A DNA stretch of 64,000 nucleotides from Escherichia phage vB_EcoM_TH18. Under the pieces are notes generated by a model. That model did no database searches and had not been told where the DNA came from. It saw only the letters and a program-made list of their open reading frames with translations. Where the stretch lies: sequence record ON075799. One strand, written 5' to 3'. This document shows positions 35,878 through 46,111 of this stretch, piece after piece; the stretch's first letter is position 1, and each line of letters starts with the position of its first letter. The translations under genes were made by a program, and so were the position numbers.

Positions 35878-36275
35878 TTCACCCCCAGACTATCGTTATA
35901 AATATCAACAAACTGGTTATCTAGGCAAACCTGTTTTCCTGCTTGTGTTTTGCTATAACTTTTAACCTTTTTATCAAGGTCTTCTTTCAGTTGGTTATTA
36001 ATTTCTCTCTCTTTCACCAACATGGTTGACAACTCATCGATCTTATCCTGCTGTTGTTTTTTAAAAGCGTTGTTGTGATCTCTAACTTGCTGGTTAATCC
36101 TCTCCCATTTAAGGTCAGTATCGCTGACACCTGCGTTGTAGGATGATGTTAACTGGTCATTATACCAATGCTTTATCTCCACAACACCCCAAACGAGCAT
36201 CACACAACACAAAACGACACCTATCTGTTTTATGTTCTTAGAAAAGAAAGTTAACAGCGTTTTAAACCATATCAT
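35874..36275 (-). CDS. i-spanin-like protein (133 aa)
   Basis: N-terminal transmembrane helix followed by charged coiled-coil region. Confidence 0.5.
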   Translation of the reverse strand: MIWFKTLLTFFSKNIKQIGVVLCCVMLVWGVVEIKHWYNDQLTSSYNAGVSDTDLKWERINQQVRDHNNAFKKQQQDKIDELSTMLVKEREINNQLKEDLDKKVKSYSKTQAGKQVCLDNQFVDIYNDSLGVK

Positions 36276-37609
36276 GATATATCACCATCACACTCAATAA
36301 TATTTTCAATCTTCAACGTTGTTTTTCTGTTTTCAGAAATACACAGACTATTAAAATTGCTAATATCGTACTGGATCTTAGATGTATCGCTTACAGAAAC
36401 CTCTAACAGAACTGCTCCAGGCTGATATATTGTAAACCCATAACTATCTCCCTCCCCGTTCTCACACAGAATTTTGTACTCTCCTCTTGCCTCCGCTTCA
36501 TCAACATAAAGTCTGAGAGTTGGAAAATTATTTGCTATATCTTCTTTGTGAAGCCCAACATGATGTTTATCTTTTGTTGGCATCATGAGATAGAAAACTT
36601 CCGCAGGACAAACTCCATATAGTTTTGTAAAATATTTCCTACCTGTTGCTTTTCTTAATCTTTGGAAAATACTGAACATATTAACTTTAGATACATCATT
36701 AAACGGCAACGGTTGCACAGGGGTAACATTTTTGTCTACCTGCTGGCAACAAGATTCTAATCTGTCTAGGAACTCAACCAAAGAATCAAGTGAAAACTGT
36801 TTTGTCTCATCAAAGATATCTGACAGTTTCATTCCGTACATCCCGCTAAGATGTGACTTTGCCGATTCCCAACTTTCTATCTGAAGGCTGGCAATAGCCA
36901 TAGCCAGTTTCATTGTCTCTTTTTTCGAAATTGTATAGCCACGAGATTTGTATTTTTCAGATCTCAAAAGTGATATAATCGGGTATTCAGTCTTATGATT
37001 TACAACTAAGACTCTTTGAGCAATATGTTTTAAGAAATTGCTATCAAATTCCCACACACCATCCTTGAAGTTAAAAGCGCCCATGTTGATTGTAAAATCA
37101 ACTTTGCTAAAGATATCTTCTGTTGTTTTGAACACATCCACAGCAACACACTGTAATACAGGATCCTGCCCAAAGTACAGCGTTACGCTCTTATCTGTCA
37201 CACCAACTCTGGTAAGATTTGGGAGATCATCTTCTTCAAGATGAAAATTTTCACATCTGGACAAAGGGTCTGTGAAACATAAATGCGTATCCTGCCCATT
37301 ATCAAGGTTATAAAAATACCTAAAAGTTCTTTTTTGATTTTCCCATCCGTTTGTCTGTGCGGTTAAATCATACTTTCCACTTAAAAGATTTTTATCCATC
37401 ATGTACGCAATGAATATCTCAAGATTTTCCCAAGATGGGAAATACAAATCAAGATCGTTGACTTTACTATTAGAGAACAAAGAGGTTATTGCCCCGCCAG
37501 CTATCTTAACATCCAGCTTCGACAATAAATCATAAACACCTTTTGGTATAAAAGAGCACAAAATGTCGTACTCTCTTTGAAAATCTTCTTTTTTGAAAAC
37601 ATGCAACAT
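36272..37609 (-). CDS. Pol-beta-superfamily nucleotidyltransferase-motif protein (about 445 aa from MLHVFKK…)
   Basis: Motif GGAITSLFSNSKVNDLDLY has the same G-G-x12-D-x-D spacing as the CCA-adding enzyme head-domain signature GGAVRD…DRD. Confidence 0.5.
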   Translation of the reverse strand: MLHVFKKEDFQREYDILCSFIPKGVYDLLSKLDVKIAGGAITSLFSNSKVNDLDLYFPSWENLEIFIAYMMDKNLLSGKYDLTAQTNGWENQKRTFRYFYNLDNGQDTHLCFTDPLSRCENFHLEEDDLPNLTRVGVTDKSVTLYFGQDPVLQCVAVDVFKTTEDIFSKVDFTINMGAFNFKDGVWEFDSNFLKHIAQRVLVVNHKTEYPIISLLRSEKYKSRGYTISKKETMKLAMAIASLQIESWESAKSHLSGMYGMKLSDIFDETKQFSLDSLVEFLDRLESCCQQVDKNVTPVQPLPFNDVSKVNMFSIFQRLRKATGRKYFTKLYGVCPAEVFYLMMPTKDKHHVGLHKEDIANNFPTLRLYVDEAEARGEYKILCENGEGDSYGFTIYQPGAVLLEVSVSDTSKIQYDISNFNSLCISENRKTTLKIENIIECDGDIS

Positions 37610-37814
37610 CTTAGCTATCCTTAAGTACAAAACAAGATGCGTAGAGACTAGCACATAAAGAAAAACCCCGCAAGAGGCGGGGTTAGGCATAGGAGAGGAG
37701 ATTGATTGGATTATTATTATAGTTATTTGAGAAAAGTGGCGAAGGAACCTTTACATGTCGAGAGTGTCTTACCGTTTACTCAGCCACGACCCTCCTTAGT
37801 GTCCACTTTAATTC

Positions 37815-37893
37815 TGGTTGCGAGTATTGGAATCGAACCTGCAATCTTCAGGGTATGAACCTAACATGGTAAATCCATTTCCACCAATCTGCA
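37815..37893 (-). tRNA. tRNA-like element, degenerate (possible anticodon CAU); likely pseudo-tRNA
   Basis: T-loop-like GGUUCGAUUCC and D-arm found, but acceptor and T stems pair poorly in hand fold. Confidence 0.25.
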
Positions 37894-37899
37894 ATAATT

Positions 37900-37975
37900 T
37901 GGTGTGACGGACAGGATTCGAACCTGTGACCACCTAGTCTTCAGCAAGGCACTCTACCAACTGAGTTACCGTCAC
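37900..37975 (-). tRNA. tRNA-Phe (anticodon GAA)
   Basis: Hand-folded cloverleaf: acceptor GUGACGG/CCGUCAC, T-arm ACAGG-UUCGAAU-CCUGU, anticodon loop CUGAAGA, CCA encoded. Confidence 0.75.
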
Positions 37976-37980
37976 ATAAT

Positions 37981-38057
37981 TGGTGGGCGATGAGGGACTC
38001 GAACCCCCAAAATTCAGGTTCTAAGCCTGACATGTATACCAATTCCATCAATCGCCC
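37981..38057 (-). tRNA. tRNA with anticodon UAG (Leu by anticodon) but class I architecture
   Basis: Acceptor GGGCGAU/AUCGCCC, anticodon arm UCAGG-CUUAGAA-CCUGA, 5-nt variable loop, A73, CCA encoded. Confidence 0.6.
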
Positions 38058-38305
38058 ATCTATATTAACAGTTATGGTTTTCCACGATACACAGAAATAG
38101 TTTTCCCATTAGCATTGATAACATAAGCGGTCTGATCCTCAGACAAAAACACTTTTTGATCAATGCCGGAAATAGCTATAGACTTTTGATGAGCACAATA
38201 CCCAACAATTTTCCCACAAAAAATTTGTTCATCATTTGGAGAGACGACTTTAACTGTTAACATGGTATCCTCTGTACATTTCTGCTTTGATATGTTTATG
38301 TTTGT

Positions 38306-38383
38306 TGGTCTGTCCGGTTGGATTTGAACCAACGACCTGGTCATCCCAAGTGACCCGCGCTACCCAAGCTGCGCTACGGACAG
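38306..38383 (-). tRNA. tRNA-Pro (anticodon UGG)
   Basis: Acceptor CUGUCCG/CGGACAG, anticodon loop CUUGGGA, T-arm GUUGG-UUCAAAU-CCAAC. Confidence 0.75.
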
Positions 38384-38467
38384 AGAAATGTAGATTTTAA
38401 TTGTCCCAGAATCTACTAACTGGTATCGCTGGCTAGGTGATATCTGTGACTTGATTAAGTCAAGAAT

Positions 38468-38559
38468 TGGCGGTTCCTGAAGGATTCGAACCTTCGGTGG
38501 GGAGATTCATTCCCAACGGCTTAACAGGCCGTCACCATCGACCACTCGGTCAAAGAACC
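38468..38559 (-). tRNA. Class II (long variable arm) tRNA with anticodon GUU (Asn by anticodon)
   Basis: 92 nt; acceptor GGUUCUU/AGGAACC, D-arm with CCGAGUGG, anticodon arm ACGGC-CUGUUAA-GCCGU, 20-nt variable arm, T-arm GAAGG-UUCGAAU-CCUUC, G73, CCA. Confidence 0.6.
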
Positions 38560-38568
38560 TGAATATTT

Positions 38569-38645
38569 TGGTGGATCTGGTTGGGGTCGAACCAACAATC
38601 TCTCGATTAAAAGTCGAGTGACTTAAACCATTTGGCTACAAATCC
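38569..38645 (-). tRNA. tRNA-Lys (anticodon UUU)
   Basis: Acceptor GGAUUUG/CAGAUCC, anticodon arm CUCGA-CUUUUAA-UCGAG. Confidence 0.75.
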
Positions 38646-38878
38646 GTTAAATTATCTTTAAAATAGCTAATTACTCGCACATAATTAGCTATACGCAACA
38701 ACTCTCCAAGGAGAGCACACTAATGATCGATTACGATTATATGACTAAATTTAGACCATCATAAGTGTTTGGCTTACGCCAGTAAAGAGCGGACTGCTCT
38801 GGGGTATCGGTAAGATGGTTGCAGCCATCTACCGAAAAATCACACCAAGCAACTAAACAAGCTACATTAAAGATAACT

Positions 38879-38967
38879 TGGAGGAGGCTGACAGAATCGA
38901 ACTGTCACCATATCTCTACAGCGGGACTGGGTTCAAACCAGCTTGTGCACCATGCACCCCAGCCTCC
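38879..38967 (-). tRNA. tRNA-Ser (anticodon UGA), class II
   Basis: Acceptor GGAGGCU/AGCCUCC, anticodon arm GCUGG-UUUGAAC-CCAGU, long variable arm, T-arm GACAG-UUCGAUU-CUGUC. Confidence 0.7.
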
Positions 38968-39038
38968 AAAGATAGCCTCTGCCGAGGATATACACCCAAC
39001 AAAGGAGGCGCTCAGGTCAGAAGAAATCTGAGCCTTAA

Positions 39039-39132
39039 TGGAGGAAGATGCCAGACTTGAACTGGCACACCCATTTCTGGGTTACTATCTCCTTAGCAGG
39101 GAGATCCCTTACCAAATTAGGGTTAATCTTCC
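39039..39132 (-). tRNA. tRNA-Ser (anticodon GCU), class II
   Basis: Acceptor GGAAGAU/AUCUUCC, anticodon arm UCUCC-CUGCUAA-GGAGA, long variable arm, T-arm GCCAG-UUCAAGU-CUGGC. Confidence 0.7.
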
Positions 39133-39153
39133 AATACCTTAGTAATTAAAAAC

Positions 39154-39243
39154 TGGTGGAGAAGGAGAGAATCGAACTCTCAAGCCGTTTTACCAGTCAG
39201 CACATTTCCAATGTGCTTTCGTCGCCAATCGATTTGCTTCTCC
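39154..39243 (-). tRNA. tRNA-Ser (anticodon GGA), class II
   Basis: Acceptor GGAGAAG/CUUCUCC, anticodon arm GCACA-UUGGAAA-UGUGC, T-arm GAGAG-UUCGAUU-CUCUC; D-arm irregular. Confidence 0.65.
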
Positions 39244-39252
39244 GTTTTAACT

Positions 39253-39328
39253 TGGCAGGGGATGGTTGATTCGAACAACCGATCACGGGGTCAAAGCCCG
39301 TTGCATTAGGCCACTATGCTAATCCCCT
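39253..39328 (-). tRNA. tRNA-Gln (anticodon UUG)
   Basis: Acceptor AGGGGAU/AUCCCCU, D-stem GCAU/AUGC, anticodon arm ACGGG-CUUUGAC-CCCGU. Confidence 0.75.
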
Positions 39329-39331
39329 TTT

Positions 39332-39409
39332 GCACGAGAGTGAGGAATAGAACCTCTTAGTCACTGGTTTTGGAGGCCAGCCTTCACCCAGTGAAGTTAC
39401 GCTACTCTC
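39332..39409 (-). tRNA. tRNA-like remnant (probable pseudo-tRNA)
   Basis: Acceptor-like GAGAGU/ACUCUC and T-arm-like GAGG-UUCUAUU-CCUC, but no canonical anticodon arm. Confidence 0.2.
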
Positions 39410-39417
39410 ATTAAAAA

Positions 39418-39975
39418 CTATTTTCGAAAAGGACTTATGAAAAATGCCAACATCACTCTCTCTCTTGAAAAAGCTCTGTCTTCAGGAACCACACTCTTCA
39501 GTTTCCAACCGACATAAATTCGCCAGTAAAATTGTTTTCCAAACAATCTAAAAGACGGGACAAACGCGAATACACCCCACGCATTGTCATTCCACATCAA
39601 CAAATAGCCTTGTTGGTTATCCTCCACATCAGAGCTTACATGGAGGTTTCCTTTCCACTTTGTCACAGATGTGATTTCACGTCCAAGTACGTGATAGGAG
39701 AAATTGTAGGCTTTATTTCTCCACAACCAAGCAACTCGTTGTAGGTAAACACCAAAACTTCCTATTTTACGGACTTCTTCCCATCTCTCTATGTGTCCTC
39801 TATCACCGTCTATAGGATTATCATATGTCTCCATCCACCTGAAAATATAAGGCAGATGCCCTGTCTTCTCATTATAGAACGGAACAACAAAAGGAGCCAG
39901 AATAACACAGAGAACCGACATAACTGGGTCAAGAGGTGCTAACAGGATCCACGATAAATATTTTAAGTATCTCAT
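39418..39975 (-). CDS. Hypothetical membrane-associated protein (185 aa) embedded in tRNA cluster
   Basis: Hydrophobic N-terminal helix; Trp-rich. Confidence 0.35.
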   Translation of the reverse strand: MRYLKYLSWILLAPLDPVMSVLCVILAPFVVPFYNEKTGHLPYIFRWMETYDNPIDGDRGHIERWEEVRKIGSFGVYLQRVAWLWRNKAYNFSYHVLGREITSVTKWKGNLHVSSDVEDNQQGYLLMWNDNAWGVFAFVPSFRLFGKQFYWRIYVGWKLKSVVPEDRAFSRERVMLAFFISPFRK

Positions 39976-40327
39976 GCAGGATCAAGCCTAGATATAATGT
40001 ACTGGTTTAAATCTGAATATGGGAAGATACTTTCAAAGATAACCTGTTTAAATCTGAAGCCGCACAAACCGAAAAGTACCTTCTGACACTCACCAAAAGA
40101 GCAATCTTTACCAACTTTTATCACAACCGTATCGGCAATCTGCACACTTTCTATCTCTTTAGATTCATGATGCCGTACTATGATTACTTTAGAAACCATC
40201 ATACTCGTCCATATTAAAGCCTTCTACTAAAGATAGTAGATGTCTAGGGTTGGACCGCAAACGCAACCCCATGGAATTTGTTACGGTCTTCAGTTGACCC
40301 AAGCGGATTTCATTGACATCTTTTAAC

Positions 40328-40402
40328 TGGAGCATCCAGAGGGTATCGAACCCTCGACTTCAGCTTGGAAGGCTGTAGTTTTCCCAATTAAACTATGGAT
40401 GC
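40328..40402 (-). tRNA. tRNA-Gly (anticodon UCC)
   Basis: Acceptor GCAUCCA/UGGAUGC, anticodon loop CUUCCAA, T-arm GAGGG-UUCGAUA-CCCUC. Confidence 0.7.
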
Positions 40403-40407
40403 ATATT

Positions 40408-40483
40408 TGGTGGGAGTGGTAGGCTCTGCCCCTACGTCCTCTCGATTATCGGTCGAGCGATCTACTAACTGATCTACACTCCC
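40408..40483 (-). tRNA. tRNA-shaped gene, anticodon GAU (Ile by anticodon), with non-canonical D-, anticodon- and T-loops
   Basis: All four stems perfectly paired, but T-loop is GGCAGAG (no UUC), D-loop AGUUAGUA lacks GG, anticodon loop CCGAUAA has C33. Confidence 0.55.
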
Positions 40484-40551
40484 AAACTGTACTGGCCCAA
40501 CAACCACGATTGGAGGGTATCGTCACACATCAAAGCCAGTACAGTTTTAGT

Positions 40552-40641
40552 TGGTGTGCCGTGATAGAGTCGAACTACCCGAGTCCCTTTCGAGACAGGA
40601 GATTTACAGTCTCCCCCGCTACCCCTACGGTCTAACGACAC
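40552..40641 (-). tRNA. tRNA-Tyr (anticodon GUA), class II
   Basis: Acceptor GUGUCGU/ACGGCAC, anticodon arm GGAGA-CUGUAAA-UCUCC, long variable arm, A73. Confidence 0.7.
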
Positions 40642-40642
40642 A

Positions 40643-40990
40643 TTAACCTTGTTTGAATTGAACAATATCCGTCGAGAACGGTTTAGCTGCCTTAATAGGT
40701 GCTTTTTCTGAGTTATCTTTTTCGAGTAACTCTTCGTTTTCCTCATCAAAGTAATCAGAAAGCATCTGCTCACCTTTCTCAATAACATAACGAGCTATAT
40801 TTTCTCTGATATTGTCTTTTGTATTCACATTCTTCATCAAATCCCTAAGAACCTGATGAGCTTCAGGAATCATTGCAATCAGATTCGTTTTTAAATCTAG
40901 GATATTTTTCTCTAACTGAATTGCATTAGATTCCTCTTTCAGAGGACGACCTTTTCCTCTTCTACGTTTTGTAAGCTGCTTAGTAGCCAT
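40643..40990 (-). CDS. Hypothetical basic/acidic protein (115 aa from MATKQL…)
   Basis: ORF trimmed to Met downstream of a consensus sigma70 promoter; longer listed ORF would overlap tRNA-Cys. Confidence 0.4.
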   Translation of the reverse strand: MATKQLTKRRRGKGRPLKEESNAIQLEKNILDLKTNLIAMIPEAHQVLRDLMKNVNTKDNIRENIARYVIEKGEQMLSDYFDEENEELLEKDNSEKAPIKAAKPFSTDIVQFKQG

Positions 40991-41009
40991 TTTAAAACCC
41001 CACTTAATG

Positions 41010-41038
41010 ATATTATCAAATAAAAACATATCTGTCAA
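41010..41038 (-). promoter_or_regulatory. Consensus sigma70-like promoter on minus strand (TTGACA, 17-nt spacer, TAATAT)
   Basis: Minus-strand reading TTGACAgatatgtttttatttgaTAATAT, about 20 nt upstream of ATG at 40990. Confidence 0.55.
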
Positions 41039-41075
41039 GTGGTATTTTAACATATTTACCAAGAAATTGAAAGTT

Positions 41076-41152
41076 TGGAGCACGGTGTCGGACTTGAACC
41101 GACATATATCTGTTTTGCAGACAGATCCGTAACCAAATTCCAGCAACCGTGC
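41076..41152 (-). tRNA. tRNA-Cys (anticodon GCA)
   Basis: Acceptor GCACGGU/ACCGUGC, anticodon arm UCUGU-CUGCAAA-ACAGA, T-arm GUCGG-UUCAAGU-CCGAC. Confidence 0.7.
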
Positions 41153-41228
41153 AATAAGTACCCCAGGTAGAGAACCTATAGAGTGGGTCTTACGAGCCGC
41201 GCTGACGATTCTCAAGTTGGGGTTAATC

Positions 41229-41305
41229 TGGTCGAGGAGACAGGATTCGAACCTGTGACCTACGGCTTAGAAGGCCGCTGCTCTATCCAACTGAGCTACA
41301 CCCCG
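41229..41305 (-). tRNA. tRNA-Arg (anticodon UCU)
   Basis: D-arm GCUC-AGUUGGAUA-GAGC, anticodon arm GCGGC-CUUCUAA-GCCGU, T-arm ACAGG-UUCGAAU-CCUGU; acceptor has one U-U mismatch. Confidence 0.7.
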
Positions 41306-41505
41306 AAAATAAGAATGCTTTATAGTGTATGGTTACTCAACCTCACTCCAACTTCCACAGTTGGTGCTCTACGAGCATGACTACGTTTGAAATCAACGTT
41401 GCGCACCGATAGCTTTCTCACGCATTGTATGCCTCATTCCCAACAAATGCTGATCAGACATTTATATCGAATAATATAAGCTAATACACTATAAAACAAA
41501 CTTGT

Positions 41506-41602
41506 GGCTGGGTGATGGAATCGAACCACCTATGTATTCAACGGCTTCCCCGTCTATTTTCAGGATTATAAATCCTCGCCCTTGCCAAAGGGCTTACCCA
41601 GC
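41506..41602 (-). tRNA. Atypical 97-nt tRNA-like gene (possible anticodon UAU) with about 30-nt extra segment
   Basis: Canonical acceptor GCUGGGU/ACCCAGC, D-arm GCCC-UUUGGCAA-GGGC, T-arm GGUGG-UUCGAUU-CCAUC; anticodon region is a 4-bp stem with loop UUUAUAA followed by 30 extra nt; CCA not encoded. Confidence 0.35.
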
Positions 41603-41604
41603 AT

Positions 41605-41679
41605 TGGTGCTCGCAGCAGGTTTCGAACCTGCAACCCCCTGCTTACAAGGCAGGTGCTCTACCGTTGAGCTATACGAGC
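41605..41679 (-). tRNA. tRNA-Thr (anticodon UGU)
   Basis: Acceptor GCUCGUA/UGCGAGC, anticodon arm CCUGC-CUUGUAA-GCAGG, T-arm GCAGG-UUCGAAA-CCUGC. Confidence 0.75.
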
Positions 41680-42044
41680 AATAAGACATTGCTTCCGATT
41701 AACAGCCTTGAGGCTTTACAGACCATATCTTGTGAGCCATAACCTGTGCCAAGGATTTCAGATGATAAACGAAATTTTATCTTTCAAGAGTCAACTTTCA
41801 AGTTTCATCTTTTACATTTAACCATTGACCTTTATTGTATGAACTTTTACTTAGTGGAAACAACAAGGCATCTTCGTGTGCCTCGCTGCATCTATGTCCT
41901 GTATTATCCTCATACATATACGATACATGGTGGGGGATATTTAACCTCCAACCCCCAGGAGGCAAGATGATGTAAACTTCGTTAATCAAAAGCAATGTTT
42001 TAAATTTCAAAACAAAGGAACGATAATGATATTATCAGAGCCTT

Positions 42045-42692
42045 TTAGAGAGAGTGCTCAATCTCAATTTCTGTCTTAGCGTTTGACTCAGACAACGCAA
42101 AATCAACGTTAGACAAGAAATCTTCAATCTCTTCTTCAAGAGAACGAATCTTAGAAGCCAGTTCAAGAGGATCCACAACCGATGGTGTGTTCATCATTCG
42201 AATAGGAGCTTCCACAGTCTTAATCTGCTCTGCATCTGGCGCTTTATCACGTTGGATATATGGCGCTCTTGCATTTTCAAGTTTATCTTCCAGAGATTTT
42301 TCTTCTTTTGCCAGAAGAAGCTGTGCAGAAGCACGCTGTGCACAAAGTTTGTTTAACAACTCTTGTTTAAAGCAAATCGTCCGTTTGCGTTCGATTGCCT
42401 CAGCAACTGTCATAGACACATTACCAATTTTGACAATTGTCTCAGCATTAGACTTAACAATTTTTGCTTTCAGTTCATCACGCACTGCCAAGAGGTCTTG
42501 CAGACTTTGATAGTCGTTGATCGCAGATTTCTTAAAATCATCAACAGAGCCGATATAACCCGGAATCTTACAATTATTCTCAGTTCCTTTTGCAATCTTA
42601 ATACAATCAAGATTGTAGATACGCTTATTGATCTTATCTTCAATTTTAGAGATAGAAGCAAGTGCACGAGTTACGGAAATCTTAGTAGACAT
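42045..42692 (-). CDS. Hypothetical protein (215 aa)
   Basis: ORF with coiled-coil-like charged regions. Confidence 0.4.
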   Translation of the reverse strand: MSTKISVTRALASISKIEDKINKRIYNLDCIKIAKGTENNCKIPGYIGSVDDFKKSAINDYQSLQDLLAVRDELKAKIVKSNAETIVKIGNVSMTVAEAIERKRTICFKQELLNKLCAQRASAQLLLAKEEKSLEDKLENARAPYIQRDKAPDAEQIKTVEAPIRMMNTPSVVDPLELASKIRSLEEEIEDFLSNVDFALSESNAKTEIEIEHSL

Positions 42693-43033
42693 GCGATCTC
42701 TCCTATGTAAATCAGCTTTGATAAAGTAACTATCCAGAAAAACAAAAACTATGTCAAGAAAAATTTTAATCTTTTACAGCATCTTTTATAGAATCACAAA
42801 GATCTTGAACAACATCAGATGTCGGTGACAAAATCATCTCGTCGGCTGCTGCTATAGCATCTGATGCTAAATCAACAAACGGAGTTGTTACCGCAGAAGT
42901 CACTTCAACAGCCGTTATTGTTACTTCGCTTGCAATCTTAAGCAAAGATCCTATCATAATCTCAACCCTCCTGAATATCCGTGATTCCCTTTATTTAACG
43001 ACGCTGGCTCACGGTGGCACTCTCGTCAATAAA

Positions 43034-43357
43034 CTATTTTTTAGTTTTCTTACCGTTTTCTACAGAAATGCTTGTTTTCTGTTTCGCTTCTCGTTCGCGC
43101 TTTGTTTTCCCAGTGCGAATACGATATGAAGCAGAAATAACTTCACCACCAATGACACGAGACACAGATTCGTAATACATTTCAGTATTACCGTCTTCAT
43201 CTTTGCGTTTTTTCAGAACTGCTACAGTTTGCGTTTTACCACCAAGGCGCACATCGTGCGGTGCAGAATGTGTCTGCGTGGATTTTGATCCAAACTGAAA
43301 AGGTTGCTTTATCGCCTCGATAGCTGACACCTTTTTAGCAGACTGTTTCTTAGCCAT
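43034..43357 (-). CDS. Hypothetical basic protein (about 107 aa from MAKKQSAKK…)
   Basis: Lys/Arg-rich small protein. Confidence 0.4.
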   Translation of the reverse strand: MAKKQSAKKVSAIEAIKQPFQFGSKSTQTHSAPHDVRLGGKTQTVAVLKKRKDEDGNTEMYYESVSRVIGGEVISASYRIRTGKTKREREAKQKTSISVENGKKTKK

Positions 43358-43409
43358 TAAGTTTTCTCCTCCGAAAACAATAAACATAGTTTATTTCGTG
43401 TGCCACATT

Positions 43410-43486
43410 TGGTGGCCCCTGCTGGACTTGAACCAGCGACCAAGCGATTATGAGTCACCTGCTCTATCCAACTGAGCTAAGGGGCC
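43410..43486 (-). tRNA. tRNA-Met (anticodon CAU; elongator-type or lysidine-modified Ile2 not distinguishable)
   Basis: Acceptor GGCCCCU/AGGGGCC with G1-C72, anticodon loop CUCAUAA, T-arm GCUGG-UUCAAGU-CCAGC. Confidence 0.75.
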
Positions 43487-43818
43487 GAATCTCTTAATAT
43501 GAGATGATATTATCCTGTATGATCTACATTGTCAAGAGATATTTTAAAATTTTATACATCCCAGTTTTCTTCTTGATAACAACCTTCCCCGAATCCAACT
43601 TCTTTTTCAAAATCAATACCTTTTTTCATACATTCCTCACATTAACAGATATTGTTTTCAAACTCAAAACGTAAAATACGAACTCTGTCAATACACTGCT
43701 GTAATCTACAAAGCAACAACTCAACTTGTTTATGCGTCTCTTCAGTATACGTTTTGGTCATCTTGCTTTTCTCCGTGATCTTTTCATTGCAGCTTCTGCA
43801 CGTCTTTGTTTACGATTT

Positions 43819-44395: not shown

Positions 44396-46111
44396 TTAAA
44401 GCTGTGATAAGGCTCTTTGGCGAATTTCTTCAAGATCCTCATCCACAAGCAGCTTACCATTAACAAAAACTGTTCTAAGCTCGTTATCATGGTCAGATAC
44501 TTGGTTAATACCAAGATTATCTACCAGCTTCAACTCGCCATCATCACCACGAATAACTTTAACAAAACCTTTCGCAGATTTCTTCCCAAGATCAGTCTTA
44601 GGCTCTTTTACGACCATTACTTGTCTGCCATCAATCACAGCACCAGTAGCTTTTACAGCCATCCCAAGAGAATCACGGGTTGTATATTGCGTTGTATAAG
44701 ACCCTACACCAAACACAATGTTACTGGAAGCAAACCCTCGTTCTTCAAGGCGCTCAAAGATCTCTTTAGCACGGGAGATTGTGATAGAGTCTCCGTAGAT
44801 TAAACCAACATGGCTATCAAGAACTTTGTAACCCAAAGAGTTTACACTACCACCAAAGATTTCCCACAAGCATTGTACAGCACCCTTAACTTCCTCTTTT
44901 GTCAGATAATTTGTAAATTCATCACCTGTCAAAGATTTCCAATCTACGAGGTTGCCTTCCGAATCTCGCATCCATGAAGTGTCTCTGGACATCTCGTATA
45001 AAGTGACATATTTGCCATTTTTAAACAGCACAGCATCCATGTCACAGCACTGCCCCGTTGCCCATTCTTCCTGAGAGCACACGCGATAACCAGCAATGAT
45101 GTGCTCTGGGATCCCACTGTCAGGTCGGAAGACCAGCTTGCCATCACGAGACATAATCTCATCTTTCAGGATTTTTGCTGCCTGTGTAATGATTGCCCAA
45201 AAATCATAGCTGTCAGCGACGTATGAAGCATAACCTGATGGGAAAATCTCTGTCACATAACGCTTTAAGAACTCAACTTCAGCACGAAAACGTGCTTCAT
45301 CAAGCGGCATATCAGGATTTTCCTGCTGGATACGCTCAACAATAAAACCAATGTTCGTTGTCGCTACGCTATGCTCAGATGCGGGAATAGACCCAGCAAC
45401 AAAGCGACCTTTCATGTTGTAATAGCGATTTGCGTAAACAATCGCTGGAATTGTATCTGTGCCCATTGAGCTAATCAGTTGCCCAAATTCGCTCTGTGCT
45501 GCGTCATGTGTTCCAGCTTCACCACGGTATGCAAAACAATGGTTCTGGAAAGGAACATGATCGTTGTTATCACATGTTTTCTTTGCCCACAGTTCTGATA
45601 GTTTACGGTATTGCCAGAAAGTCGTTGCCGTGGTAATTGTCTTCCAAGTCTCCGATGAGATCACGCTCTCAAGGAAGTTCGGCAGCCAGTAAAAATCAGG
45701 ATGCGTGTTCTGAATCGTGAACATGGGAACCTGAACAGGAACAAGAGTTCCTTCAGGCAAAGCCCTAATTTCAATTGGGAGATAACCAAGGTCATGCAAT
45801 TTCTCAAAACCCCAAGTTTCAACAGCATCCTTCCCAATGCTCAAATCACAAATCTCTTTGTAATCCTGAATCGCCTTTTCTTTCGGTAAAGCGAAGAAAT
45901 TATTATTAAACATGTCGATCAGGAACCACTTGATAAATCCCTGAAGACCTGCAAACATCACACGATGGTCATCATCTGCAAAGTGTACAAAGTGTTTCAC
46001 ATTGCGTGGGGTCATGTTGTCTTGAACAAACTGTGAACGTCTATCGTACATCGAGATGTGACTTGGTTTATAAAAATCTGCGAACAGCAATGGACTTTCT
46101 TTGTGAAGCAT
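44396..46111 (-). CDS. Nicotinamide phosphoribosyltransferase-like protein (NAMPT family; possible Namat-type) (571 aa)
   Basis: Family assignment by overall recognition and size, not by a single diagnostic motif; immediately downstream of and co-oriented with PRPS-like gene. Confidence 0.6.
   Translation of the reverse strand: MLHKESPLLFADFYKPSHISMYDRRSQFVQDNMTPRNVKHFVHFADDDHRVMFAGLQGFIKWFLIDMFNNNFFALPKEKAIQDYKEICDLSIGKDAVETWGFEKLHDLGYLPIEIRALPEGTLVPVQVPMFTIQNTHPDFYWLPNFLESVISSETWKTITTATTFWQYRKLSELWAKKTCDNNDHVPFQNHCFAYRGEAGTHDAAQSEFGQLISSMGTDTIPAIVYANRYYNMKGRFVAGSIPASEHSVATTNIGFIVERIQQENPDMPLDEARFRAEVEFLKRYVTEIFPSGYASYVADSYDFWAIITQAAKILKDEIMSRDGKLVFRPDSGIPEHIIAGYRVCSQEEWATGQCCDMDAVLFKNGKYVTLYEMSRDTSWMRDSEGNLVDWKSLTGDEFTNYLTKEEVKGAVQCLWEIFGGSVNSLGYKVLDSHVGLIYGDSITISRAKEIFERLEERGFASSNIVFGVGSYTTQYTTRDSLGMAVKATGAVIDGRQVMVVKEPKTDLGKKSAKGFVKVIRGDDGELKLVDNLGINQVSDHDNELRTVFVNGKLLVDEDLEEIRQRALSQL

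Follow-up and report, generated by a model that had tools for sequence, protein, structure and literature searches.

Two roles have been debated for the transfer RNA (tRNA) arrays of phages, namely the supplementation of codons and the replacement of tRNAs destroyed by defence systems. The tRNA species of T4 read codons that are rare in E. coli, some of them need CCA addition, and ribonuclease III (RNase III) acts in the processing of the T4 tRNA precursors. The genome paper on phage rV5 made the same codon argument for its tRNAs that we make below (PMC3606486). With respect to defence, T5 tRNA-Tyr and phage tRNA-Lys restore infection in the face of retron-Eco7 and PrrC170 (PMC11555353), and phage tRNAs have been proposed to be nuclease-insensitive (PMC10264068). 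Here we analyzed a stretch of 64,000 nucleotides from Escherichia phage vB_EcoM_TH18 (ON075799), referred to below as the window, in which positions 37815-41679 hold a dense array of tRNA genes. The core finding is that this is a phage tRNA array of a known, syntenic type. It is very probably the Avunavirus version, a reduced ortholog of the array of the Vequintavirinae, and would serve mainly to supplement codons that the phage over-uses relative to E. coli. What is new is the identity of mislabelled or unannotated genes, the recombinational origin of a pseudo-tRNA, conserved non-canonical tRNAs, conserved stems that close the spacers, an adjacent enzyme resembling CCA-adding enzymes and, above all, a strongly covarying, unnamed tRNA-like family with a clade-specific loop.

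Gene prediction with ARAGORN identified 15 minus-strand tRNA genes within 37815-41679 and one more at 43410-43486. The Rfam tRNA model placed 12 of the 15 over its gathering threshold (41-74 bits; E-values 1e-5 to 1e-14) and added tRNA-Ile(GAU) (40411-40483, 53 bits), which ARAGORN had missed. Under laxer filters it added a second missed gene with the apparent anticodon UAU (41506-41602, 33.1 bits against a cut-off of 29). In total, ARAGORN and Rfam gave 18 tRNA-shaped genes in 3.9 kb, every one on the minus strand. The initial annotation, made from the letters of the sequence, had reported about 16 tRNA-shaped genes; automated prediction bore out the array and every anticodon listed, and raised the count to 18. 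Two of these genes are damaged by recombination or mutation and one is a conserved tRNA-shaped RNA.

Judged from their sequences, the other 15 genes look like working tRNAs. Read along the minus strand they are tRNA-Thr(UGU) (41605-41679, 73.6 bits), tRNA-Arg(UCU) (41229-41305, 69.9 bits), tRNA-Cys(GCA) (41076-41152, 53.1 bits), the class II tRNA-Tyr(GUA) (40552-40641), tRNA-Ile(GAU) (40408-40483, 53.4 bits), tRNA-Gly(UCC) (40328-40402, 63.4 bits), tRNA-Gln(UUG) (39253-39328, 61.2 bits), tRNA-Ser(GGA) (39154-39243, 93% identical to its ortholog in phage EspYZU14), tRNA-Ser(GCU) (39039-39132, 41 bits), tRNA-Ser(UGA) (38879-38967, with partial matches to the orthologs in Seunavirus), tRNA-Lys(UUU) (38569-38645, 61.3 bits), tRNA-Asn(GUU) (38468-38559, 56.8 bits), tRNA-Pro(UGG) (38306-38383, 62.4 bits), tRNA-Leu(UAG) (37981-38057, 63 bits) and tRNA-Phe(GAA) (37900-37975, 68.4 bits). 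Three of them (Asn, Leu and Ile) have a conserved, non-standard architecture. The additional minus-strand gene at 43410-43486 (65 bits), outside this region and the first of the syntenic array, has the anticodon CAU and was called tRNA-Met by ARAGORN. Since it is 96% identical to genes annotated as tRNA-Ile in 5158 E. coli genomes, it is only nominally a Met gene, and is of the lysidine-type tRNA-Ile2 that reads AUA. In the copy of Escherichia phage Av-05 the D-loop is nearer still to that of the host.

Over positions 37500-43700 the window matched Escherichia phages 18-1-2, 19-1-2 and 24-2-1 at 100% identity and phage Av-05 at 95.7%, all of which belong to the genus Avunavirus in the subfamily Vequintavirinae. 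The public records of Av-05 and 18-1-2 (NC_025830 and OK136180) have zero tRNAs annotated over the equivalent of 37815-41679, and lay "hypothetical protein" open reading frames (ORFs) across the tRNA genes, such as Av05_007 across tRNA-Ser(UGA). We compared the array with those of the rV5-like phage slur12, the Seunavirus phages SalP219, KE23, EspYZU14, PVP-SE1 and LNA4, the Henunavirus phage Hena1 and Klebsiella phage K54_rec2. A single order of slots, with the same flanking genes, was conserved in SalP219, KE23, EspYZU14, PVP-SE1, Hena1, K54_rec2 and LNA4, and the window obeyed it: Ile2 ... Thr, tRNA-like, (Leu), Arg, Cys, Tyr, Ile, Gly, (Glu), Trp, Gln, Ser x3, Lys, Asn, (Asp), Pro ... Leu, (Val), Phe, CAU. 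The arrays of the Vequintavirinae and of Justusliebigvirus share with that of the window not only this order but also their unusual tRNA members and their position, with a nicotinamide phosphoribosyltransferase (NAMPT) gene on one side and genes for a nucleotidyltransferase of about 450 residues (445 in the window), spanin and terminase on the other. They differ in gene number, the window array having 18 + 1 genes compared with 24-26 in Seunavirus and Henunavirus and 7 in Vequintavirus. Eight Seunavirus slots are absent from the window (Lys-CUU, a second Ile-GAU, Leu-UAA, Glu, Asp, Arg-ACG, Ala and Val). Features peculiar to Avunavirus are its long structured spacers, the four ORFs embedded in the array, the chimera in the terminal slot and the damaged Trp gene.

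Based on these comparisons, the window array is a smaller, syntenic and rearranged ortholog of the approximately 25-gene array of the Vequintavirinae rather than a product of local duplication. The initial annotation had proposed an array shaped by duplication and decay, and the decay was confirmed for two genes, the chimera and the Trp-type gene. Local duplication, in contrast, was not supported, because the order is orthologous slot by slot with Seunavirus and Henunavirus and there were no tandem tRNA duplicates in the region, whose direct repeats are only the shared consensus of tRNA D-arms and T-arms. The eight absent Seunavirus tRNAs left no trace in the window spacers in blastn-short searches with more than 100 tRNAs of relatives, whose matches were confined to called genes, and Rfam at E <= 10 found nothing in these spacers. 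The absence of remnants pointed to clean loss, or that the genes were never gained, rather than slow decay.

Comparison with Av-05 showed the tRNAs to be better conserved than the flanking ORFs, with long identical stretches, and showed that slots turn over even among close relatives, as the Arg slot and the terminal CAU slot differ between these 96%-identical phages. Where the window has a canonical tRNA-Arg(UCU) (41229-41305), Av-05 has, between identical flanks, a different tRNA-like gene (L001 5471-5553) whose loop is CUUCUAA (UCU); it lacks a normal D-arm, and its anticodon arm is enclosed by a CCCAC/GUGGG pairing. From the sequences, this difference is a cassette-like replacement of the slot. 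In its last slot Av-05 has a different CAU gene plus an additional 76-residue ORF (Av05_005); a homing endonuclease was considered for this ORF and rejected, its sole match being a PHROG of unknown function. The arrays of relatives are interspersed with genes annotated in the deposited records as HNH endonuclease and endonuclease VII (L007 10495-10755; L016 5413-5799, 10982-11428 and 12771-13232; L005 14032-14196), and no endonuclease genes were found in the window array. These interspersed endonucleases are a plausible driver of slot replacements and chimeras.

To what extent the retained tRNAs follow codon demand was assessed from 77 mechanically chosen ORFs of the window. The three codons most enriched relative to E. 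coli, AGA (7.7-fold), ACA (4.5-fold) and AUA (3.95-fold), each have a tRNA in the array. All nine A-ending codons with an array tRNA had ratios of 1.43-7.7, and the five without one had ratios of 0.79-1.46; four of these five (GAA, UUA, GCA and GUA) are cognate to four of the eight tRNAs that are absent relative to Seunavirus. This match between enrichment and tRNA content supports codon supplementation as the force that shaped which tRNAs were kept, and the codon comparison likewise backed the suggestion of supplementation in the initial annotation. Several points weigh against it. The ORFs compared with the E. coli K-12 codon table were chosen mechanically, and the difference between A-ending codons with and without an array tRNA was only modest (Mann-Whitney p = 0.04). 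In addition, the codons of the Phe, Cys, Tyr, Asn-AAC, Ile-AUC and Ser-AGC tRNAs are not over-used, and supplementation thus leaves part of the set unexplained. For the Phe, Cys, Tyr and Ser-AGC tRNAs, maintenance of the tRNA pool or counter-defence is plausible.

The three non-standard members differ from canonical tRNAs in ways that are shared across genera. The tRNA-Asn(GUU) is 92 nucleotides long and has the class II shape, with a base-paired extra arm, and G73. Extra-arm Asn tRNAs of 83-92 nucleotides were found in nine further phages of five lineages (Av-05, LNA4, SalP219, KE23, PVP-SE1, Hena1, K54, muut and ESCO32), and the extra stem covaries, being GGGA/UCCC in the window, UGGA/UCCA in LNA4, and GAGU/ACUC, GAGC/GCUC or GAAC/GUUC in other genera. 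Its 18-nucleotide T arm is identical to that of E. coli tyrU; however, the overall identities of 64% to tRNA-Tyr and 62% to tRNA-Asn are not discriminating, and a search for the gene in E. coli genomes returned no match. A recruited tRNA-Tyr with an anticodon shift remains a lead. The tRNA-Leu(UAG), with A73, is 77 nucleotides long and lacks the long variable arm, giving it a class I shape; it has the same form in Seunavirus and in LNA4, compared with 85-86 nucleotides in Hena1, K54 and E. coli leuW. The tRNA-Ile(GAU) has a non-canonical elbow, with a D-loop (AGUUAGUA) without GG and the T-loop GGCAGAG. Of ten ortholog variants, the four that have lost the GG all have an R-G-C-R-R-A-G T-loop and the six that retain it all have TTCRA, and the T stem covaries. 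This consistent pairing of GG loss with an altered T-loop indicates that the change of the elbow was coordinated and not decay. The compensatory changes across genera show that the unusual tRNAs are under purifying selection.

Other odd tRNAs were seen in the relatives. The tRNA-Trp (87 nucleotides), tRNA-Cys (86 nucleotides) and tRNA-Glu (89 nucleotides) have extra hairpins in the variable region, and a tRNA-Lys(UUU) has a 10-nucleotide insertion in its D-loop (loci L005 12837-12923; L010 6275-6360 and 9300-9388; L006 10471-10556; L004 10985-11078); ARAGORN mislabelled some of these genes as "???". In Seunavirus phages the tRNA-like RNA described below is directly preceded by an additional tRNA-Ile(GAU)-like gene (L004 7929-8003, L006 7927-8003, L007 7928-8003), with the odd loop ACGAUUA (eight nucleotides in EspYZU14) and a C at the position of U33.

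The two damaged genes had been recognized as sub-standard copies in the initial annotation, and both indeed fell under the Rfam cut-offs (37818-37893, 25 bits with the tRNA model, cut-off 29; 39336-39407, 32 bits with the tRNA-Sec model, cut-off 47). The first (37815-37893 in the ARAGORN structure, minus strand, 25.1 bits) sits in the terminal tRNA(CAU) slot, of which there are two allele types among the relatives: type A, in Seunavirus, K54, LNA4 and Av-05, with a conserved, covarying 6-bp D stem and 4-nucleotide loop, and type B, an 82-nucleotide gene of Hena1 and EspYZU14. The 5' 55 nucleotides of the window gene align with type B and the 3' 25 nucleotides with type A, the junction being in the conserved T-loop GGTTCGA. 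This junction accounts for the mismatches in two acceptor pairs and three T-stem pairs, and the fold was no more stable than those of shuffled sequences (z = -0.5). On these alignments, the gene is a recombinant, chimeric pseudo-tRNA.

The second (39330-39411, minus strand) is in the Trp slot immediately before Gln, as in Hena1 and EspYZU14, and retains a 7-bp acceptor stem (AUGAGAG/CUCUCGU), G73 and the loop CUCCAAA of a tRNA-Trp(CCA). It has a 6-bp hairpin in place of the D-arm and a C31.A39 mismatch, and compared with its Av-05 ortholog the T-loop is changed from UUCGAUU to UUCUAUU and the CCA to CAA. Its sequence is that of a damaged Trp gene, which might still function in Av-05 and is less likely to do so in the window phage. 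An allo-tRNA structure of the 8/4 (or 9/3) type was considered for it and rejected, as the alignment of Trp orthologs gave a 7-bp acceptor stem, G73, a T stem of five positions (one mismatched) and no long variable arm. Ortholog alignments and scores below the cut-off likewise led us to reject a tRNA-Sec or 8/4 identity for the Trp-type gene and for the CAU gene of Av-05.

The remaining gene (41503-41602, minus strand), with the loop UUUAUAA and the apparent anticodon UAU, had been listed in the initial annotation as a possible UAU. Rather than a simple decayed copy, the gene is one of a conserved tRNA-like family. Homologs were found in 170 phage records, in which they are labelled tRNA-OTHER, tRNA-Lys, tRNA-TERM, tRNA-Ile, tRNA-Thr or "tRNA-???", or are unannotated; unannotated copies are present in Justusliebigvirus, which is of a different subfamily from the Vequintavirinae. 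The rV5 genome paper lists six tRNAs, and the tRNA-like RNA is not among them (PMC3606486). A literature search on this RNA, or on extra-arm tRNA-Asn in phages, returned nothing specific, and its 3' signature motif was absent from 185,579 bacterial and archaeal genomes.

We assembled 28 distinct sequences of the family, covering two phage subfamilies, from phage records, IMG/VR and metagenomes. In a 12-sequence alignment all 252 of 252 cloverleaf pair cells were standard and 9 of 21 pairs showed compensatory changes; with all 28 sequences, 99.1% of cells were paired and 11 of 20 pairs were compensatory. Structures slid by 1-3 columns dropped to 32-46% paired, and RNAalifold independently gave the same cloverleaf. 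The tertiary elbow pair 19:56 was G:C in 21 sequences and U:A in seven, a covariation that argues for a real L-shaped fold. At the site of the variable arm there is a covarying hairpin of changing length, approximately 30-40 nucleotides (about 30 in the window), between invariant A-rich flanks (GAAAAUA ... AAUACAUAGG). Two further structures were examined by eye: a kink-turn in the flanks was rejected, as was a general pairing between the anticodon-like loop and the loop of the extra arm, which is possible (UCCA/UGGA) in Seunavirus only.

In this family the D stem has 4 bp, and the anticodon arm has only four conserved pairs, between an invariant G26 and G44, that enclose a loop of 5-8 nucleotides, depending on the reading, with a clade-specific sequence. 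In Henunavirus, Justusliebigvirus and several metagenome lineages the loop is CAUCAAA or a near variant, with A at position 33, which is probably the ancestral state of the family. It is CAUCCA, or CCAUCCAG with the closing pair open, in Seunavirus, UUUUUAA in Vequintavirus, CCGCCA in a Klebsiella phage and UUUAUAA (seven nucleotides, with U33 and A37) in Avunavirus. The 3' end is U73 and CCA in Seunavirus, Henunavirus and Klebsiella phages, U73 and UCA in Justusliebigvirus, A and CCU in Vequintavirus, and C or U and ACA in Avunavirus, the window copy having no encoded CCA. Compared with canonical tRNAs (RF00005), the gene thus scored above the cut-off and showed covariation of the cloverleaf, and did not show the five-pair anticodon stem, the 7-nucleotide loop with U33 and the ortholog-conserved anticodon. 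The characteristics of tRNA-Sec (RF01852; 47 bits, an 8-bp acceptor stem, a 6-bp D stem with 4-nucleotide loop and the anticodon UCA) were also not found: the tRNA-like RNA, the Trp-type gene and the Av-05 CAU gene scored 29-39 bits and have 7-bp acceptor stems, and a UCA anticodon occurs in only some clades of the family.

What this RNA does can be read in two ways. It could decode AUA, a codon enriched 4-fold in the phage, as an ordinary tRNA-Ile(UAU) whose variable arm is unusually long; the Avunavirus loop, with its U33 and A37, the intact cloverleaf and elbow, and the score above the Rfam tRNA cut-off are all consistent with this. We nevertheless consider this reading unlikely. The homologous loop differs from clade to clade, with A33 in the CAUCAAA clades; no more than four pairs of the anticodon arm are conserved; the discriminator can be C, U or A; the CCA is not always encoded; and annotators disagree on the identity (Lys, Ile, Thr, TERM, OTHER or "???"). 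Furthermore, AUA is already read by the tRNA-Ile2 copy at 43410-43486. In the second reading, which we regard as somewhat less probable than not, 41503-41602 represents an undescribed phage tRNA-like family, of the Vequintavirinae and Justusliebigvirus, that is not an ordinary decoder and might be a decoy or sponge for a host factor that recognises tRNAs, or an adaptor charged through its body with an "anticodon" retargeted in each clade.

A similar question arises for the array as a whole, which might mainly replace host tRNAs that are lost to anticodon nucleases or other tRNA-depleting defences (PrrC, PARIS, retron-Eco7 PtuAB, colicin-like enzymes), the odd shapes being poor substrates. Nucleases have been reported to target several classes of tRNA that the array has (Lys(UUU), Tyr(GUA), Asn, Thr, Arg and Gln), and, as noted, several members read codons that are not over-used. 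The conserved shape changes (the Asn extra arm, the Leu without a long arm and the Ile elbow) and the adjoining gene for a protein resembling 3'-end nucleotidyltransferases also fit. In addition, tRNA-Tyr is the first tRNA after the best promoter here, and T5 uses a strong promoter for tRNA-Tyr (PMC11555353). However, five anticodon loops (Lys, Tyr, Asn, Thr and Gly) match those of E. coli lysT, tyrU, asnT, thrU and glyT exactly, and only those of Gln and Leu differ, so that a signature of loop mutation is absent where it would be most expected, which argues against evasion by this means. Supply by over-expression cannot be distinguished from codon supplementation by sequence. Counter-defence as the main role, which is compatible with supplementation, is thus possible, and we regard it as somewhat less probable than not. 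That the array is a neutral relic, the decaying remainder of a larger ancestral array with most members on their way out, seems very improbable. Eight Seunavirus slots are absent and two genes crippled, the Arg and terminal CAU slots differ between 96%-identical phages, and Vequintavirus has only seven tRNAs, all of which speaks for such a relic. Against this, the tRNAs are more conserved than the flanking ORFs in the comparison with Av-05, stems have been kept paired across genera by compensatory changes, the retained set follows codon demand, and the spacers hold no remnants of the absent tRNAs. Codon supplementation by a reduced, orthologous array remains our preferred reading.

The spacers of the array, on the same strand, contain promoter-like sites and conserved structures. 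A sigma-70-type promoter-like site (43507-43535, TTGACA-17-TAATAT, 10/12) is upstream of the first array tRNA and a second (41774-41801, TTGAAA-16-TAAAAT, 10/12) is about 95 nucleotides upstream of tRNA-Thr; a further promoter-like site is at 42757. The near-consensus promoter reported in the initial annotation at 41010-41038 was upheld as a consensus match (TTGACA-17-TAATAT with an extended -10 TG, 10/12). It had been assigned to a small membrane-protein gene embedded in the array; a gene does follow it, but this encodes a soluble-looking protein of 115 residues (40643-40990, phrog_3330), and the membrane-type gene is a separate ORF, there being four embedded ORFs and not one. The membrane-type gene (39418-39975) encodes a 185-residue DUF7338 protein (Pfam PF24027, E 6.9e-65) with one N-terminal hydrophobic segment (hydropathy up to 2.1), and the other two encode 76 residues (39972-40202, phrog_14202) and 63 residues (38072-38263, phrog_3909). 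The array ends at an intrinsic-terminator-like hairpin (37664-37684; an 8-bp stem with six GC pairs, followed by TTTCTTT).

The perfect inverted repeat noted earlier between tRNA-Tyr and tRNA-Ile proved to be part of a stable hairpin (40484-40551) with a 15-bp closing stem (-26.3 kcal/mol, z = -4.54, none of 200 shuffles as good). The Arg/Cys spacer (41153-41228) also forms a hairpin (-25 kcal/mol, z = -3.74). The spacer at 41306-41502, of about 200 nucleotides and found in Avunavirus only, is closed by a 20-nucleotide inverted repeat (41311-41330 and 41484-41503); the whole fold had z = -3.45, and the closing stem was present in both the minimum free energy and the centroid structures. The largest, between Ser and Lys (38646-38878, about 235 nucleotides, z = -6.67), is closed by an inverted repeat at 38649-38668 and 38860-38879. 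Its arms of 19-20 nucleotides are 100% conserved in Justusliebigvirus at the same slot, with an interior that is swapped or partly duplicated, and one internal hairpin shows compensatory changes relative to Av-05. The element was present as one copy per genome and always in this slot (window; L018 2500-2628; L019 2501-2670; L048, L050 and L051). A mobile miniature inverted-repeat transposable element was considered for it and rejected, based on this single copy per phage contig in the same slot; three matches in bacterial metagenome-assembled genomes, without nearby tRNAs, look like chance. We infer that the closing stems of 15-20 bp are processing stems, for which RNase III is the obvious candidate, although they could also be small RNAs.

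Directly after the terminator is a gene (36272-37609, minus strand) for a 445-residue protein that we assign, on structural prediction, as a Pol-beta-type nucleotidyltransferase. No sequence-level match was found in Pfam, NCBIfam or the PDB sequences. Its AlphaFold (AF2) model had a predicted local distance difference test (pLDDT) score of 85.8, and the top 22 Foldseek matches in the PDB were CCA-adding enzymes or tRNA nucleotidyltransferases (E-values down to 1.9e-6). The residues G38 G39 ... D52 x D54 are invariant in 46 homologs, a GG-13 residues-DxD spacing that we take to be that of the class II head motif. The predicted structure thus has the Pol-beta head with GG...DxD and the CCA-enzyme-like fold of class II CCA-adding enzymes. 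Weighing against this assignment, the TM-scores were only about 0.3 and TENT5 poly(A)-polymerase-like proteins match as well. The gene ends the tRNA array in every relative examined (Seunavirus, Henunavirus and Klebsiella phages). From the modelled fold, the protein may complete or repair tRNA 3' ends, which would be relevant to those members without an encoded CCA.

On the other side of the array, just upstream, is the NAMPT gene (44396-46111, minus strand). A phosphoribosyl pyrophosphate synthetase gene is upstream of it in Seunavirus, Henunavirus and the examined Klebsiella phage, and Justusliebigvirus has a nicotinate phosphoribosyltransferase gene at its position. The genes for nicotinamide adenine dinucleotide salvage and the tRNA genes are one conserved early block. 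Also upstream of the array, among early-type genes, is a 215-residue ORF (42045-42692, minus strand) labelled "tail fiber protein" in Av-05 and in PHROGs, with homologs in 737 phage records, among them T5-like phages (41% identity) and phages of Bacillus, Vibrio and Pseudomonas. The tail fiber label looks doubtful.

The genes and their orthology, the covariation and the match with codon usage are observed here; building on these, the expression and benefit of the array can be outlined as follows. The sigma-70-type promoters (43535, 41801 and 41038) would give rise to polycistronic transcripts that end at the terminator (37684-37664). Host RNase P and 3' exonucleases would free the tRNAs, RNase III would probably also cut the spacer-closing stems, and the downstream-encoded, CCA-adding-like nucleotidyltransferase may then finish or repair the 3' ends. 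Once aminoacylated, the tRNAs would benefit the phage by topping up the decoding of AGA, ACA, AUA, GGA, UCA, CUA, CAA, CCA and AAA through U34 or lysidine-type tRNAs.

For the debate on phage tRNA arrays, the window array is a clean comparative case, as it is a trimmed 25-gene array that keeps exactly the U34-type tRNAs for over-used codons, with Lys, Tyr and Asn loops identical to those of the host. A second lesson is that conserved, unconventional members are systematically overlooked or mislabelled by automated annotation, given the absence of tRNAs in the records of Av-05 and 18-1-2, the calling of tRNA-Ile2 as Met and the range of labels on the tRNA-like RNA. If the second reading of the tRNA-like RNA is correct, the class-swapped tRNAs, which bear an extra arm in Asn, Trp, Cys and Glu, lack one in Leu and have a re-paired elbow in Ile, would amount to a systematic strategy of changing tRNA shape. 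If both are adaptations to host factors that recognise tRNAs, counter-defence would extend from changes in the anticodon loop to changes of the whole tRNA body, and these RNAs would be natural scaffolds for tRNA engineering.

Comparison with known systems places the individual elements as follows. Allo-tRNAs have 8/4 or 9/3 acceptor/T stems (PMC5389517), unlike the window genes, all of which have 7-bp acceptor and 5-bp T stems. An extra arm, as in class II tRNAs and tRNA-Sec, is shared by the window tRNA-Asn(GUU) and the tRNA-like RNA. The tRNA-Sec model gives the best score, or close to it, for the tRNA-like RNA, the Trp-type gene and the terminal CAU genes, all below 47 bits, and its consensus loop, CUUCAAA, is one base apart from the Henunavirus-type loop CAUCAAA. 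Class II CCA-adding enzymes are the best fold matches of the 445-residue protein, in which their nucleotide-selecting motifs were not identified, and its gene adjoins an array with some CCA-less members.

The T4 tRNA cluster differs in having eight tRNAs and a tRNA-Ile that carries CAU. It is similarly compact, is served by early or middle promoters, is interrupted by ORFs and a homing endonuclease, and overlaps with the window array in its amino acids (Arg, Ile, Thr, Ser, Pro, Gly, Leu and Gln as annotated). T4 rnaC and rnaD (species 1 and 2) have no homology to the tRNA-like RNA and, judged by single-sequence folds, no full covarying cloverleaf; the likeness is that they too are stable RNAs of tRNA size and unknown function, one of which has a tRNA-like T arm. 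The tRNA-rich region of T5 belongs to a different virus family, and a counter-defence role has been shown for T5 only (PMC11555353). Like the array of the window, it is large, is carried by a virulent coliphage and has ORFs scattered among its tRNA genes, and T5-like phages also carry a homolog of the ORF at 42045-42692.

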